Of a DNA stretch of 38,097 nucleotides, positions 12,909-17,488 are shown piece after piece. This DNA is from a virus (lineage: Duplodnaviria > Heunggongvirae > Uroviricota > Caudoviricetes): IMG/VR virus record IMGVR_UViG_2778261087_000005; one strand, 5' to 3'. The notes beneath the pieces were generated by a model that saw nothing but the letters and a program-made list of their open reading frames with translations, was not told the origin of the DNA and did not search any database. A program made the translations under genes and the position numbers. Position 1 is the stretch's first letter, and every line of letters starts with the position of its first letter.

Positions 12909-13078
12909 TGTCTACTCCACTTTCCCGCGTTATCAGTAACGAAATCTTCCGCGTTCCGGCGCGCCGCCAGCGCAAGCCCGCGGTTAAGCCGTCCGAAATC
13001 CCGACCATGAAGGACTACACCGCCTGCCTGGTGGATCAGAAATGGCTGCGTCTCGCGGCGAGGAGAGCGCATGGCTAA
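12908..13078 (+). CDS. Small nin-region protein (56 aa)
   Basis: ATG overlaps the NinB stop (TGATG); hand-translated; overlaps the NinG start by 8 nt. Confidence 0.4.
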   Translation: MSTPLSRVISNEIFRVPARRQRKPAVKPSEIPTMKDYTACLVDQKWLRLAARRAHG

Positions 13079-13682
13079 GTTACCGCGCCGCAAGTGCGCC
13101 CATAAAGCCTGTCGCCAGTGGTTCCACCCGGTACGCGACGGGCAGGTAGTTTGCTCATTCGAGTGCGCCAGCGCTATCGGCAAAGAACAGACCGCAAAAT
13201 CCCGTGAAGCCGCTCAGCAGAAGGAAGCGCAGCGTCAGCGCACCGAAGAGAAAGCTGGTCGCCAACGGCGTGCTGCGCGCCGTAATGAACTTAAGCCGAT
13301 ACGTCACTGGGTACAGATGACTCAGCGCGCCTTCAACGACTGGCGTCGCGAAATGCTGCTGGCAGCCGGTCACGGTTGCATCTCTTGCGGAACCAAGACC
13401 GCCTTTGCCTGGCATGCCGGGCATTACCGCACTACGGCCGCCGCACCGCAACTTCGCTTTAACCAGGACAATATCTGGCTGCAGTGCTCCGCCTGCAACG
13501 TTCACAAATCCGGAAACATCGAGGCATACCGCGCCGCCCTGATTGAGCTGATTGGCGAGGAGCGCGTGCTGGCGCTGGAATCCAACAACGAAACCCACCG
13601 ATACACCCGTGAAGAGCTGGATGGCATCCGCGCTAAGGCACGGGCAGATCTTCGCGCATTCAAACAGCAGGTGGCAGCATGA
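13071..13682 (+). CDS. ninG: NinG/Rap recombination-associated protein
   Basis: 203 aa; close resemblance to lambda Rap/NinG, including CISCGT...DAGHYRTTAAAPQLRFN...CNVHKSGN. Confidence 0.8.
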   Translation: MAKLPRRKCAHKACRQWFHPVRDGQVVCSFECASAIGKEQTAKSREAAQQKEAQRQRTEEKAGRQRRAARRNELKPIRHWVQMTQRAFNDWRREMLLAAGHGCISCGTKTAFAWHAGHYRTTAAAPQLRFNQDNIWLQCSACNVHKSGNIEAYRAALIELIGEERVLALESNNETHRYTREELDGIRAKARADLRAFKQQVAA

Positions 13683-14062
13683 GCACAGAAACCGAAATTG
13701 AACTGGGCACGGTTGTCGCGTTCCCGACGAAGAATAACGACCTACAGGACGGGCTGGTTATTCAGCGCGAAGGGCAGAAGGTTATGTGCCTGCACTCCAC
13801 TGTTTGGGTGAATGAAAAAGACCGGACCTTACGCTGCCGGAAGTGCGACACGCTGATCGAACCTTTTGACTTCCTTATGACGCTCTGCGACCAGGAGTCT
13901 CGCTACATGGAGAACGTGAAATATCTCCGCCGGGAAGAAAAGCAGCGCCGTCAGAATATCGAGAAGCTCATTCAGATTGAGAAGAACGCCAAAGCCCGTA
14001 TTCGCCGCGCCGGGGATAAGTCGCCACTTCCTCTCTGGCAGAACGAGAGGGTTGAAGAATGA
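13679..14062 (+). CDS. Hypothetical nin-region protein
   Basis: 127-aa ORF coupled to the NinG stop. Confidence 0.55.
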   Translation: MSTETEIELGTVVAFPTKNNDLQDGLVIQREGQKVMCLHSTVWVNEKDRTLRCRKCDTLIEPFDFLMTLCDQESRYMENVKYLRREEKQRRQNIEKLIQIEKNAKARIRRAGDKSPLPLWQNERVEE

Positions 14063-14175
14063 CGCGTGACCAGATTATGCGGTACCAGGCCGAAAGCGTT
14101 AAGCGCGCCAACCTGCCGCCAGTAGCAAACCACAGCCAGAACAAAACCAACCAGCCACATAAGGAAGCCGCATGA
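14059..14175 (+). CDS. Small ORF (38 aa)
   Basis: Hand-translated; overlaps both neighbours; low confidence. Confidence 0.25.
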   Translation: MTRDQIMRYQAESVKRANLPPVANHSQNKTNQPHKEAA

Positions 14176-14861
14176 ACAGTCAGCAACTGGAATACGTACG
14201 TCAGCAGCTCATTGTGGCGACCGCAGATCTGAGCGGGGCGACGAAAGGGCAGCTGGTAGCTTTTGCCGAGAATGCGCAATTCACCGCGACGGCGCGCAGC
14301 CGGGGCCGGAAAAAGGTATTCGACAAGGATAAGCAGCGCATGGTCAACCCGGATGGTCCGCCGATGAGCGGCAGCCAGTCACGCGCTAAGGGCTCGTCTA
14401 TCGCGCTGGTCAGCCCTGTGGAGTTTGGTACCGCGTCATGGCGCCGCGCCGTCCTGTCGCTGGAAGAACACCAGAAAGCGTGGCTGCTGTGGAACTACAG
14501 CGAGAATATCCGCTTCGAATACCAGGTGGCGATCACCCAGTGGGCGTGGGCAGAGTTCCGGGAACAGCTCGGCGCGAAGAAGGTGGCCGGCAAGACGATT
14601 GAGCGCCTGAAGAAGCTTATCTGGCTGGCGGCGCAGGACGTCAAAGCGGAGCTGGCGGGTAAGGATGTGTATCAGCATCAGGACCTGGCCGCCCTGTGTG
14701 GCGTTAAGCCGGATAACTGGTGTCATAACTACGCCGATTACTGGCTTGCCATGTGCGCCATCTTTAAGCGGCTTGATGGCGATTCACTCCTCTGTACTGT
14801 GAGAACACGATCACAACAAAAAGCGACTTTTTCGCAGCAGGGTATTGCAAAAGTCAATTAA
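14172..14861 (+). CDS. Putative late-gene antiterminator (Q position)
   Basis: 229-aa ORF as the last early gene before the lysis cassette; SD AAGGAAG; assignment is from position, family not verified. Confidence 0.45.
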   Translation: MNSQQLEYVRQQLIVATADLSGATKGQLVAFAENAQFTATARSRGRKKVFDKDKQRMVNPDGPPMSGSQSRAKGSSIALVSPVEFGTASWRRAVLSLEEHQKAWLLWNYSENIRFEYQVAITQWAWAEFREQLGAKKVAGKTIERLKKLIWLAAQDVKAELAGKDVYQHQDLAALCGVKPDNWCHNYADYWLAMCAIFKRLDGDSLLCTVRTRSQQKATFSQQGIAKVN

Positions 14862-14926
14862 ATAGCATACTTTTCATGTAAATCTGATATCTTCGCCATA
14901 GCTTTGTAGGACGACAAAGAATTAAC

Positions 14927-14958
14927 AGCCTCGCCATCGTGCGGGGCTTTGTTTTTTG
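14927..14958 (+). terminator. Intrinsic terminator about 65 nt downstream of the Q-position gene (tR'-like)
   Basis: 8-bp stem AGCCUCGC/GCGGGGCU with a 6-nt loop, followed by UUGUUUUUUG. Confidence 0.55.
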
Positions 14959-15050
14959 TGCTTTCTGTAAACCAAGTGGGCGTTAAAAGTTAAAAATCAT
15001 TATTTACTTATTTAAAATGTGGCCTCCACTTAAAACAGAGAGACCTCATC

Positions 15051-15290
15051 ATGAAGAATTTCCAGCTTTATGTTGGCGGCACTAACAACATCACCTATCG
15101 TTACGAAATTCATAAGATGGATGATGCTTTTAGTGTTCGGATTTTTAATGTCATCGATAAAGCACACAAAGAAGTGGGGGCTAAACTCCTTCGCTCAGTT
15201 TCATCTCACGACGTAATTGATGAGTGCGTGTCACATTACAAAAGGCAAGCGCAAGGCGTTAAGGGTTTTCTTCGCTGGCTTGGATTGTGA
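15051..15290 (+). CDS. Hypothetical 79-aa protein (AT-rich cargo gene in the Q-holin interval)
   Basis: ATG 15051; AT-rich upstream region with promoter-like hexamers; own terminator downstream; no family recognised. Confidence 0.6.
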   Translation: MKNFQLYVGGTNNITYRYEIHKMDDAFSVRIFNVIDKAHKEVGAKLLRSVSSHDVIDECVSHYKRQAQGVKGFLRWLGL

Positions 15291-15308
15291 AAAAGTATCA
15301 GATTAAAC

Positions 15309-15331
15309 AGGTCGCTTAGGCGGCCTTTTTT
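15309..15331 (+). terminator. Intrinsic terminator
   Basis: AGGUCGC-uuag-GCGGCCU (one G-U pair) followed by UUUUU; near-identical to the terminator at 22737. Confidence 0.7.
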
Positions 15332-15335
15332 GTTT

Positions 15336-15608
15336 CTGCACAACAGGAAAGAGCATTTGCAGGGTTCGACTCCCTGCCGTGGGGTTGTGCCACATGATGC
15401 GAGTAATGAGTGCTCTCTCCGTTGTGGTGTAACTCAATTCCCGCTTGCGGGTTAAATGGGTAAAGTAATGCATCAACTGGCATAGCCAGCAGGGCAGGCA
15501 TGATGCTAATGCTGAACCTGAGTATCGGTTCGAGTCCGATCGCCACACACCAGAACCCACTACCTGGGATCCTTCGGCCAGAGAGCCGACATTGCCTTAC
15601 CCTCATCT
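15336..15608 (+). other. Non-coding late-leader region with two tRNA-like T-arm hairpins
   Basis: CAGGG-TTCGACT-CCCTG (15360-15376) and ATCGG-TTCGAGT-CCGAT (15524-15540) match T-stem/T-loop consensus, but no complementary 5' acceptor strand was found at tRNA distance, so no complete tRNA gene is called. Confidence 0.3.
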
Positions 15609-15609
15609 T

Positions 15610-15632
15610 CCCGGCCTGTCGCCGGGTTTTTT
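15610..15632 (+). terminator. Intrinsic terminator about 100 nt upstream of the holin
   Basis: CCCGGC-cuguc-GCCGGG followed by UUUUUU. Confidence 0.7.
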
Positions 15633-15731
15633 ATTCAGGCCGCAGACAATCAATTCCAGATGCCCCGTAGCTATCGTGTCTGACGGCCTTTTCTCAACTA
15701 CCACACAGCACCCCGGACCCGGAGGTGTGGA

Positions 15732-16052
15732 ATGCAACGTATGAACCCAACAAATGGACACGATCTGCCGTACTGGTGGTCGGCGGCCTTGGGCCTGTTC
15801 TCTTTGCTTAGCCTGCAGGATTACGTGTTTATTATCGGCGCGCTGGTATCGGCGTTCTTCACGATAAAAACCTATTACGCAAAACGGAAAGAAGAGCGTA
15901 AGCGTATGGCTGAGGAAAGGAAACGAACCCAGCTGCTGGAAAACTACTTATCTGATGTAGGTAAAAAACCTCACTCCGATCGTCCGGCTGCCGCCGAGGT
16001 GGTTACGGAGGCAATGCGGAGAATTTCCGGTGGCACAGTTGAAACTGAGTAA
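15732..16052 (+). CDS. Holin, two-TM class (pinholin-like)
   Basis: 106 aa; dual-start-like MQRM; two hydrophobic segments and a basic C-terminus; SD GGAGGTG; immediately upstream of a SAR endolysin. Confidence 0.7.
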   Translation: MQRMNPTNGHDLPYWWSAALGLFSLLSLQDYVFIIGALVSAFFTIKTYYAKRKEERKRMAEERKRTQLLENYLSDVGKKPHSDRPAAAEVVTEAMRRISGGTVETE

Positions 16053-16560
16053 GAAAAGCGGCGCGGCGGGCATTGTCTGCTCCGTAGGAACGATCATCGC
16101 CATTGTGGTGAATGCGGGCCATGTCAGGACTAACGAGCGCGGGCTAGAGTTAATCGGTAACGCTGAGTCTTGCCTGCGTGATCCATATGTCTGCCCGGCA
16201 GGTGTGCTGACTGACGGTATGGGTAATACGCATGGCGTAAAACTAGGCACCGTTAAGTCTGACCAACAGATCGCAGCCGAGTGGGAGCGCAACATCCTTG
16301 ATGCTGAGTCCTGTGTTAACCGCTACGGGAATGGCAGAAAGCTATCTGACGATACTTTCTCTGCGGCTGTATCGGTAACGTTTCGTGCTGGCTGCGGAAA
16401 CATGCGAACCTCCACGATGTTCTCTCTTCTCAGAAGTGGAGACATCACGGCGGCATGCAACCAGTTCCCTCGCTGGGTATGGGGTGGAGGCAAGGTTCTT
16501 CCTGGTCTGGTCACTCGCGCCGGGAAAGAAAAGTCGCTCTGCCTGGATGGTGTGAAATGA
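16030..16560 (+). CDS. SAR endolysin (phage lysozyme, P21 R-like)
   Basis: N-terminal signal-anchor-release segment ([21 protein letters not shown]); C-terminal region closely resembles P21-type lysozyme ([35 protein letters not shown]); GTG start overlaps the holin end. Confidence 0.85.
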
Positions 16561-16934
16561 GCCGCCTTACCGCCATCATCGCCGTAGTGGTTGTCTGCCT
16601 GCTGGTTTCCGTGGCTTGGGCGATTAACCACTACCGCGACAACGCCATCACCTACAAAGACCAGCGCGATAAAGCGACGGTTCGGGCCGACACATCGGAA
16701 GCGATCACTAACAACGTGATCACCACGATAAACCTCATTCGTGACATCTCACAGGCTACACAGAATGCAAAGAACGAACTGGCTCGAAAGGGCGAGACGC
16801 GCATTGTCTACATCAGGCAGGCGCTTGAAGGTGATCCGTGCGCTAACCAGCTTGTTCCTTCTGCCGCTGCTGACAGCCTGCGGGAATACGCAGACAGTTT
16901 ACGTTCCGGCCCCGGTGGTGCCGATAAGCGCTGA
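16557..16934 (+). CDS. Rz-like inner-membrane spanin
   Basis: ATG 16557 overlaps the endolysin stop (ATGA); N-terminal TM ([18 protein letters not shown]) and polar periplasmic domain. Confidence 0.65.
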
Positions 16935-17112
16935 CCTGACCGCAGACACGCCGATCCCGGGAATGGTGGTTCCGTTCACTTGGCAGGCAAGTCTGGAGTT
17001 AAACGCTCAGCTTTATACGGCGTTGGGGCAGTGCAATCTAGATAAGGCTGGTATAAGGAAAATCGAGAATTCAAGACTTGGTTCACGAATCAGAATTTTG
17101 AAAGCTAACTAA
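16825..17112 (+). CDS. Rz1-like outer-membrane lipoprotein spanin (overlapping Rz in another frame)
   Basis: Starts inside Rz in another frame (TTG 16825 or GTG 16831); signal peptide with lipobox LLTAC; Pro-rich mature region; extends 178 nt past the Rz stop. Confidence 0.5.
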
Positions 17113-17150
17113 CTATAAGTATGATGTTTTCTCCAACATAAGGAGTGAAC

Positions 17151-17420
17151 ATGGAACGTAATAAACTGGTAAGCACTTTAAGATTCGTAAGCGCAAAAAC
17201 AGCAAACTCATTTAAATATGAAATCTATATCGATTTGGATGGTAATCCGCCTTTTGCGGTTCTTTACACGGAAGTGAAGATGGGTACCGATTTAGACCCA
17301 AGAAACTTAGGTGACCGCTATGTTTGGGTGAAGATTGATGGGTATATTCGCCTAAATGGCCCAGACATTGAGCAGTTAGAAAGTGAGTGCGAGACGCATA
17401 TTAAACAGATGCTTGTTTAA
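17151..17420 (+). CDS. Hypothetical 89-aa protein (AT-rich cargo gene after the lysis cassette)
   Basis: ATG 17151 with SD AAGGAG 5 nt upstream; own terminator; shares motifs with the 79-aa protein at 15051. Confidence 0.6.
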   Translation: MERNKLVSTLRFVSAKTANSFKYEIYIDLDGNPPFAVLYTEVKMGTDLDPRNLGDRYVWVKIDGYIRLNGPDIEQLESECETHIKQMLV

Positions 17421-17432
17421 AGCGTAGTAGAT

Positions 17433-17453
17433 GCCGCCTTCGGGCGGTTTTTT
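17433..17453 (+). terminator. Intrinsic terminator
   Basis: CCGCC-uucg-GGCGG hairpin followed by UUUUUU. Confidence 0.7.
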
Positions 17454-17488
17454 ATTGCTATCACCATGAGTAGGCTCATCGTAATGGC

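Follow-up and report, generated by a model that had tools for sequence, protein, structure and literature searches.

In Shiga toxin (Stx) phage 933W, the stx genes lie downstream of rare-codon tRNA genes. Morons, as reportedly defined by Juhala and colleagues in 2000, are autonomous cassettes equipped with their own promoter and terminator, such as bor and lom of phage lambda or the morons of HK97. PR'-tR' transcripts of lambdoid phages can function as small RNAs (sRNAs) (Sy et al. 2020, PMC7547250), and IsrJ of the Salmonella prophage Gifsy-1 is a 74-nucleotide (nt) Hfq-binding RNA that was detected experimentally (Padalon-Brauch et al. 2008, PMC2330248) and is transcribed under all tested conditions in lysogens (bioRxiv 10.1101/787010). 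Here, we describe a locus related to these systems in a 38,097-nt stretch of viral DNA (IMG/VR record IMGVR_UViG_2778261087_000005; the whole stretch is called the window hereafter), which is a lambdoid prophage. The 870-nt gap between its antiterminator gene Q and its holin gene contains an open reading frame (ORF) for a 79-residue protein (ORF79; positions 15051 to 15290, plus strand).

The explanation of the whole locus that we favour, and that we hold to be moderately likely, is that of the late-operon leader of a Q82-type lambdoid prophage settled by a one-gene moron. The preliminary description of this DNA had presented ORF79 as a cargo gene at the position of stx in Stx phages. All the elements that it had listed, namely the Q gene, a promoter, two terminators, the ORF and a promoter-like site upstream of it, could be located in the sequence. 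The observation is confirmed, but the case is an ordinary one: a conserved moron, with a function that can be surmised at most, in a classical accessory slot of a lambdoid prophage.

ORF79 codes for a member of a small protein family

ORF79 is almost certainly a real protein-coding gene. We surveyed 65 IMG/VR viral contigs and 17 genome loci that contain homologues of ORF79. The reading frame is conserved, as all 17 genome loci and most of the 65 viral ones have kept it intact, and the homologues are not merely non-coding sequences. Third-position changes dominate the differences between them (2540, 1798 and 4947 at codon positions 1, 2 and 3, respectively). The median pairwise ratio of non-synonymous to synonymous substitution rates (dN/dS) is 0.136, with synonymous sites saturated between groups. 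The gene is AT-rich, as had been noticed, with a GC content of 0.42 (0.43 at third codon positions, GC3) compared with 0.58 (GC3 0.70) for Q and 0.51–0.55 for the lysis genes.

The protein had been said to have no recognisable family. However, it matches phrog_21608 of PHROGs v4 (E 1.2e-44; residues 1–77 on positions 1–77 of the 80-position profile), although that family is annotated as being of unknown function. The homologues, which are restricted to a few enterobacterial genera, form 29 clusters with 61–100% identity in Escherichia coli, Enterobacter and Dryocola, with further loci in Buttiauxella, and the identical protein is found on 393 contigs. The family is thus already known from PHROGs and from the sequenced Enterobacter phage vB_EclS_CobraSix (called CobraSix hereafter), and RefSeq labels ORF79 of an identical prophage as a hypothetical protein. 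No significant match was found in Pfam, NCBIfam or PADLOC 2.0, or in a sequence-profile search of the PDB. A profile search of 1.84 billion representatives added to the family no more than three full-length proteins and a fragment of 52 residues with a match over most or all of the profile; therefore, the family is small and without a bridge to a known family.

ORF79 codes for a soluble, basic protein (isoelectric point 9.4) that is hydrophilic and devoid of signal or membrane segments (maximum Kyte-Doolittle value 0.44). In the widest family alignment, Y7, I14, Y16-R17-Y18, I31, G43, E58-C59 and H62 are invariant. AlphaFold2 produced a confident model from the family alignment (predicted local distance difference test, pLDDT, 83.8), with a meander of four antiparallel strands (residues 4–48) and a C-terminal helix (residues 52–76). 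There was no significant fold match in Foldseek searches of BFVD and the PDB, which returned nothing at E <= 0.001; the non-significant neighbours include MRP1/2, Pur-alpha and T5 PC4-like proteins. With other small binders, i.e. MmoD (6d7k_H), T7 Gp1.2 (7u65_G), the N-terminal domain of AcrIF24 and PC4/PUR/Whirly repeats, the likeness is one of shape only, at 3–13% identity and with no significant profile or Foldseek match, and membership in these groups is not established. A homology between ORF79 and a 62-residue ORF in isrI of Gifsy-1 was also considered and rejected (hhalign probability 0.1%).

A second AT-rich small ORF is present in the window at positions 17151–17420 (89 residues, GC content 0.40). 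It has its own terminator at about 17431–17455 and is preceded by CTCC (17129–17132) and GGAG (17142–17145), which form a pair of anti-Shine-Dalgarno (anti-SD) and Shine-Dalgarno (SD) sequences. Only two other clusters of homologues were found for it. This ORF is located between Rz/Rz1 and the terminase-side genes, which is the slot of ORF79 homologues in Dryocola prophages. By eye, it has in common with ORF79 an E-C-x-(S/T)-H helix motif and a (F/Y)(K/R)YEI strand, and the predicted order of strands and helix is the same, though its model is of low confidence (pLDDT 50). That it might be a paralogue of ORF79 is unsupported (hhalign 1.8%, Smith-Waterman z 0.5).

The gene is flanked by its own putative expression signals

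Upstream of ORF79, where the preliminary description had indicated promoter-like sequence, there is indeed a candidate promoter at positions 14990–15018 (plus strand; TTAAAA, 17 nt, TAAAAT). A TAnnAT-type hexamer is found 34–38 nt before the ATG in 17 of 17 genome loci, in three kinds of context, and TAAAAT is present at −38 in 50 of the 65 viral loci. Downstream of the gene, the predicted terminator was borne out as well. The intrinsic terminator of the cassette (15309–15335, plus strand) consists of a 7-bp stem with five G-C pairs (15309–15326) and a T-run, and its hairpin has a folding energy of −13.1 kcal/mol (z = −3.0 relative to shuffled sequences). The same motif follows the ORF in 50 of the 65 viral loci.

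The members of the Dryocola/Buttiauxella group, which have different contexts, reveal the extent of the conserved segment. Their identity is 0.77 from −40 to −1, 0.50 from −75 to −41 and 0.26 beyond −80, with corresponding values of 0.65 for third codon positions and 0.28 past the stop codon. Therefore, the mobile unit comprises ~75 nt of upstream DNA and the ORF, with the proximal leader under selection. We compared the upstream block (TCATTATT...) by eye with the Fur, Zur, LexA and RstA boxes, none of which fitted convincingly.

As bare patterns, promoter-like and terminator-like sites are not in excess in this region. A consensus scan of positions 13500–17000 gave two promoter-like sites, with 2.3 expected, and six terminator-like sites, with 3.6 +/- 2.1 expected. 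The intrinsic-terminator-like sites on the plus strand are those at 14927–14958, 15309–15335 and 15610–15632, all in the Q-holin gap, with one of the three reported by the scan in two overlapping registers. As these patterns are at chance level, the case must rest on homology and conservation.

The leader of ORF79 also contains an inverted repeat (15017–15049, plus strand), in which folding pairs an anti-SD sequence, GGCCTC (15021–15026), with the SD region, GAGACC (15040–15045). In the window, a C/A mismatch (15023/15043) leaves only a weak version of this hairpin (z = −0.65), since A15043 breaks a pair and also weakens the SD sequence. Its z score is −2.5 or lower in eight of the 17 homologous loci, strong versions being found in locus L008 of our set (−17.4 kcal/mol, z −4.8) and in CobraSix (−12.4 kcal/mol, z −3.1). 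The sequences of the arms differ between lineages. One group varies mostly in a G-U-tolerant manner, and in the Enterobacter group, substitutions affect one side only and often disrupt the pairing. RNAalifold predicted no structure from a MAFFT alignment of the leaders. The usual 7-nt spacing from the −10 hexamer would put the 5' arm upstream of the predicted start site; hence, we hypothesize that the hairpin is confined to read-through transcripts.

Genomic contexts of the ORF79 family

We compared the neighbourhoods of the homologues, which are found in other prophages including those of Enterobacter, Dryocola and Buttiauxella. In 57 of the 65 viral contigs, the homologue is encoded behind a Q82-type Q gene, with an IsrJ-like unit (85–100% identity) in between. 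The spacing between Q and the ORF is 192–194 nt in 55 of them (193 nt in the window), despite Q identities of 67–100% and downstream lysis modules of several unrelated types. CobraSix shares this layout of Q, IsrJ-like unit, ORF and terminator, and its protein (gp74, UGO47239.1) is 81% identical to that of ORF79. Unlike the window, CobraSix retains an intact tRNA-Arg(TCT) gene after the cassette. Between the two (CobraSix locus L001, 3190–3432), identity is ~95% in both flanks and over the first ~85 nt of the ORF, and the 3' two-thirds of the ORF have strongly diverged (dS 1.4), mostly at synonymous sites. The divergence of this 3' part between similar flanks points to a recombination junction inside ORF79 and thus to a mosaic gene.

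Other locations are found in the other groups. In Dryocola and Buttiauxella prophages, the homologue follows the lysis cassette and precedes the terminase genes; these prophages have a lambda- or 21-type Q, and their Q-holin gap is occupied by HicAB. Several Dryocola, Buttiauxella and Enterobacter sp. genomes harbour chromosomal copies in ordinary neighbourhoods, for example near pntAB, beside a cytochrome b561-like gene or between rstB and zinT/rstA. Comparison of the behind-Q, post-lysis and chromosomal neighbourhoods revealed no partner gene conserved across contexts. The gene is also absent from some close relatives of the locus. ORF79 is missing after the IsrJ unit of Gifsy-1, and only 4 of 518 E. 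coli genomes that contain the promoter block found at the end of Q (described below) carry it. The entire 870-nt gap is present at 100% identity in 4 of 5426 complete E. coli genomes, those of strains GB089, 09-00049, O22:H8 strain 154 and OkiPb01715, for which the sources are ground beef, lettuce, a bovine rectal swab and bovine feces.

One of the chromosomal copies (locus L021, 5700–7900; Enterobacter sp. R1 / Dryocola BD586) adjoins zinT in an ~1.4-kb insertion that splits rstB from rstA, two genes that are adjacent in E. coli K-12. Given the invariant Cys and His residues, a link of the family to metal availability is conceivable.

Thus, ORF79 has the traits of a moron: its own terminator, a deviating base composition, presence or absence among relatives and occurrence at several positions. 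As the ORF, ~75 nt of upstream DNA and the −10 hexamer recur after lysis genes and in chromosomes, it behaves as an autonomous moron, and we regard it as likely that it is one, with its own promoter. Like lambda bor and lom and the HK97 morons, it is a single gene between essential modules with a deviating composition, its own terminator and a candidate promoter, it is carried by some related phages and not by others, and its copies lie in several kinds of genomic context. Unlike them, it is a fixed neighbour of Q in one phage lineage, and its promoter is a predicted one.

Several points weigh against this interpretation. The fixed spacing of 192–194 nt behind Q could mean that ORF79 is an integral late-operon gene of that lineage. 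Consensus promoter matches are no commoner in the region than expected by chance, and the candidate promoter of ORF79 has a weak −35 element. The −10 hexamer of the IsrJ-like unit (TACTTT) is poorer than the TATATT of its relatives. In addition, the firing of both promoters, the late one and that of ORF79 itself, is deduced from sequence and not from transcripts.

The fixed spacing and the weak, chance-level candidate promoter of ORF79 favour an alternative in which ORF79 belongs integrally to the late operon as its first gene and depends on Q-mediated read-through for all of its expression, with a lytic role such as the tuning of Q, of RNA polymerase or of lysis timing, rather than being a lysogenic-conversion cassette. 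The linkage of the ORF with both Q and the IsrJ-like unit in 57 viral contigs speaks for it too. Nevertheless, we consider this alternative unlikely. The ORF and its upstream block are also found after the lysis genes of prophages with other types of Q, and the chromosomal copies have no phage genes nearby, so that only a promoter of their own could express them. Moreover, a dedicated terminator would be pointless inside an operon, and the same promoter unit occurs without ORF79 in Gifsy-1 and in most of the E. coli prophages that possess it. We therefore retain the moron interpretation. With respect to the 'cargo gene' of the preliminary description, ORF79 is indeed a real, horizontally mobile accessory gene, but it is stably linked to Q. 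In most phages that carry it, ORF79 is a stable resident behind Q at a fixed spacing and not a sporadic recent cargo.

A Q82-type antiterminator gene is followed by a predicted IsrJ-family leader RNA

The Q gene (14172–14861, plus strand) codes for a 229-residue late antiterminator. Its product is a full-length member of Pfam PF06323 (E 5.4e-83; 278.5 bits for a cut-off of 25; residues 4–220 on positions 1–217 of the 220-position profile), which is the Q82 family (PMC7171158). It also matches phrog_304 (E 1.6e-99) and is 59% identical to Q of Gifsy-1.

The end of Q overlaps a putative PR'-like sigma70 promoter (14845–14873, plus strand), identified by its alignment with Gifsy-1 and its conservation behind Q. 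The −35-like TTGCAA (14845–14850) and the −10-like TACTTT (14868–14873) are separated by 17 nt that include the Q stop codon, and the aligned isrJ promoter of Gifsy-1 reads TTGCAA-17-TATATT. The motif and spacing reported earlier are thus correct, but TTGCAA had been placed one base off (14846–14851). The block from the −35 hexamer to about +15 (14843–14893) recurs in 518 of the 5426 complete E. coli genomes, and in 24 of 25 sampled rows, it lies where a gene annotated as antitermination protein Q ends. A late promoter together with its Q-loading region would be expected to recur in this way. A −10-like TGATAT/GATATC at 14885–14891 (+6 to +15, by the assumed start site) is invariant in all aligned relatives and is a candidate sigma70-dependent pause element for Q loading. 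In phage 82, the pause is at +25 (PMC9191641).

The preliminary description had proposed a tR'-like terminator at 14927–14958, and a stem at 14927–14948 with a T-run to 14958 is indeed present there. Its match to Rfam assigns this unit to a described sRNA family, IsrJ, rather than leaving it an anonymous terminator. Positions 14877–14950 match RF01393 over the entire model (positions 1–75 of 75; E 1.6e-07) with 54.8 bits, for a gathering score of 37 bits, and both hairpins are visible in the alignment of the window. The predicted IsrJ-family RNA, including the terminator, extends from 14877 to 14958 on the plus strand. In addition to the window, an IsrJ-like unit is found behind Q in CobraSix and in Enterobacter loci.

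The closest relative is IsrJ of Gifsy-1, which also has a Q82-family Q upstream, a tRNA slot downstream, a full-model match and a homologous promoter (TTGCAA-17-TAnnTT). The two loci share the promoter, the first ~17 transcribed bases (TGTAAATCTGATATC) and the terminator hairpin. They differ in the middle of the RNA (54.8 bits for the window compared with 100.3 bits), and the Gifsy-1 locus has an isrK-orf45-anrP module between Q and isrJ. It is for Salmonella that Hfq binding and the invasion phenotype have been reported, whereas the copy in the window is a predicted RNA. With lambda 6S RNA and StxS of Stx phages, the unit shares a constitutive-type promoter right after Q and an intrinsic terminator less than 100 nt downstream, past which the late genes require Q to be read. 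It has no sequence similarity to StxS, and Stx phages have a 21/933W-type Q rather than a Q82-type one. Altogether, the comparison suggests that IsrJ is the late-promoter leader RNA of Q82-type prophages, a role that is not stated in the IsrJ literature retrieved by a full-text search with Gifsy or antitermination.

The isrK region of Gifsy-1 (locus L003, 2157–2355) matches the Rfam models of the C4 antisense RNA and its c4-a1b1 target. Therefore, isrK-orf45-anrP looks like a P1-type c4/icd/ant immunity module, and this unit is apparently inserted between Q and the IsrJ promoter. In Gifsy-1, IsrK pairs with orf45. An analogous pairing of the IsrJ-like RNA with the ORF79 leader was rejected, as duplex energies are no better than those of shuffled sequences (z −0.3 to −1.0).

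tRNA remnants and a P22-like segment precede the lysis genes

In 42 of the 65 viral loci, an intact tRNA gene is found ~45 nt after the ORF stop codon, with anticodons CAT (25 loci) and TCT (16 loci). The window harbours a tRNA relic at this place (15338–15391, plus strand), with a D-loop-like GGAAAGAGCA, a T-arm (CAGGG-TTCGACT-CCCTG) and a 7-bp acceptor-like stem in which GCACAAC (15338–15344) pairs perfectly with GTTGTGC (15383–15389), followed by CA. The relic, which lacks an anticodon arm, adopts an acceptor/T-arm minihelix on folding (−20.2 kcal/mol, with a z score of only −1.2) and is ~98% conserved in CobraSix (locus L001, 3644–3700), with different mismatches. There, the intact tRNA-Arg(TCT) gene and a spacer (168 nt in total) lie just 5' of the relic, and both are missing from the window. 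A second tRNA fragment can be read from the sequence at 15524–15552 (plus strand; T-arm ATCGG-TTCGAGT-CCGAT, then ...CACCA). Its only identity with tRNA-Asn of phage L is 11 nt of the T-loop, and it is not a functional tRNA. ARAGORN and Rfam, even at E <= 10, did not detect the tRNA relics.

The third intrinsic terminator (15610–15632, plus strand) is located just 5' of the lysis genes. The segment that contains it (15593–15715) is ~77% identical to the pre-holin leader of the P22-like Salmonella phages L and ST64T, where the matching segment bears an annotated terminator ahead of the holin gene. The order in these phages is Q, terminator, tRNA-Asn, tRNA-Leu, terminator and holin. Therefore, the Q-holin gap is a mosaic, with a Q82-type 5' part and a P22-like 3' part.

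The genes around the gap are those of a lambdoid prophage, with NinG (13071–13682) and a 127-residue ORF before Q, and the holin gene, the lysozyme gene and Rz after the gap. The holin gene, the first of the lysis genes (15732–16052, plus strand), was identified by its match to phrog_1350 (E 2.8e-32) and the RefSeq annotation of the identical prophage. The lysozyme gene (16030–16560, plus strand) matches PF00959 (E 4.7e-27) and is followed by Rz (16455–16934, plus strand). The same prophage also encodes a DNA polymerase III theta homologue and a YdaT-family protein, and upstream of position 1 of the window (locus L002, 2402–3061), it has an MT-A70 family methyltransferase pseudogene with an internal stop codon.

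Toxin, addiction and defence functions are unlikely

Alternatively, ORF79 might be one half of a small addiction module, as its toxin or its antitoxin, or it might be a catalogued defence or anti-defence protein. It is a small basic protein in an accessory slot of a prophage, and other Q-holin intervals contain HicAB. In some relatives, the SD sequence is sequestered in a hairpin, which recalls the mRNAs of type I toxins, and the fold neighbours include AcrIF24, Gp1.2 and an immunity protein. However, these fold neighbours are weak, generic matches, the protein lacks a hydrophobic character, and none of the PADLOC 2.0 defence profiles matches it at E <= 1. Furthermore, no conserved neighbour gene or antisense ORF was found across contexts (antisense RNA was not searched for experimentally). 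In the window, the minus-strand and overlapping ORFs of the 15030–15670 region have no PHROG match, and neither strand carries a second ORF with a family match. We consider functions of this type to be quite improbable.

A Stx-like virulence cargo, i.e. a toxin released after induction or acting on eukaryotic cells, has only a very slight chance of being correct. The analogy arises from the location of ORF79 between Q and the lysis genes, on the Q-antiterminated transcript, and all four complete E. coli carriers come from cattle or food. As in 933W-type phages, Q/PR'/tR' precede the gene and the lysis cassette follows it, and rare-codon tRNA genes of the CAU and UCU anticodon types are found in this interval as well. 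The claim that it occupies the position of stx holds for the interval but not for the place within it, as ORF79 is found before the tRNA slot and stx of 933W after it; therefore, the two positions are not equivalent. Stx is a secreted AB5 toxin, whereas ORF79 codes for a single small protein of 79 residues to which it has no homology. We found no AB5-like traits at the locus, namely no signal peptide, no hydrophobic N-terminus or segment and no gene for a second subunit, and the protein has no toxin, Pfam or NCBIfam match. In addition, most carriers are prophages or chromosomes of Enterobacter, Dryocola and Buttiauxella. The locus thus departs from the Stx analogy on three points: ORF79 lies on the other side of the tRNA slot, its protein is of a different nature, and the gene is stably linked to Q. 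More generally, a defining feature is missing for a Stx-type toxin, for a toxin-antitoxin pair and likewise for a catalogued defence protein.

Finally, a chance open frame in an AT-rich leader with RNA as its only functional product, a view that could invoke the neighbouring bona fide sRNA family and the lack of a Pfam family for the protein, has practically no chance of being right, as it is already refuted by the substitution pattern (dN/dS 0.14, synonymous saturation between groups), the intact frames, the confident structure model and the protein-like pattern of conserved residues.

A model for the expression and function of ORF79

In the moron interpretation that we favour, the locus would work as follows. 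During lysogeny, the promoter overlapping the end of Q would make an IsrJ-family RNA of ~74–80 nt that stops at the first terminator. This leader RNA, whose homology is established and whose activity is presumed, would be the counterpart of lambda 6S RNA, StxS and Gifsy-1 IsrJ. From its own −10 hexamer to its own terminator, ORF79 would be transcribed in the lysogen as a monocistronic mRNA of ~300 nt, as the conservation of these signals suggests. After induction, Q-modified RNA polymerase coming from the upstream promoter would, according to the established biology of Q, pass all three terminators of the interval. ORF79 would then be the first gene of the late transcript and be amplified with the lysis genes. 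By its location, it should be on the path of Q-antiterminated transcripts, and its amplification should accompany induction.

The last step is the weakest part of the model, being based on fold and context. ORF79 would work on its own in the cytoplasm, where it would bind a macromolecule of the host or of the phage. Its target would be a protein, as for small phage inhibitors, or a single-stranded nucleic acid, as for proteins with PC4/PUR/Whirly-type folds. The product would be neither secreted nor a toxin of the size of an enzyme. Stand-alone binding seems the most likely mode of action because of the lack of a conserved partner gene, the small size, the basic surface and the simple four-strand-plus-helix shape of the protein. 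We tentatively propose a binder or inhibitor function, with no specific target named, as a possibility rather than a probability.

A more elaborate proposal, which we put forward as a long shot, combines a new stand-alone four-strand-plus-helix family with translation that depends on the transcription start site and an insulated cassette. A host target would be bound at a site, possibly metal-bridged and dimeric, that is built from the invariant Y-R-Y strand and E-C-x-x-H helix. In the leader, the anti-SD arm would lie between the −10 hexamer and the predicted start site, so that read-through transcripts would be translationally damped and transcripts from the own promoter would be open. If this proposal were true, the cassette would be insulated from its insertion site, which would explain why the same unit is found behind Q, behind lysis genes and in chromosomes.

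The practical importance of ORF79 is modest, and there is no evidence of a toxin, defence or anti-defence role. The more interesting by-product of the analysis is the assignment of the short leader RNA to the IsrJ family. The IsrJ element, or at least its promoter-proximal part, is present in about a tenth of complete E. coli genomes. The locus offers a testable anatomy of the late-operon leader in a Q82-type prophage of cattle- and food-associated E. coli. Being the first protein gene of the late transcript in an Enterobacter phage and prophage lineage and yet standing alone in chromosomes, ORF79 may be a convenient model for the expression signals of morons.

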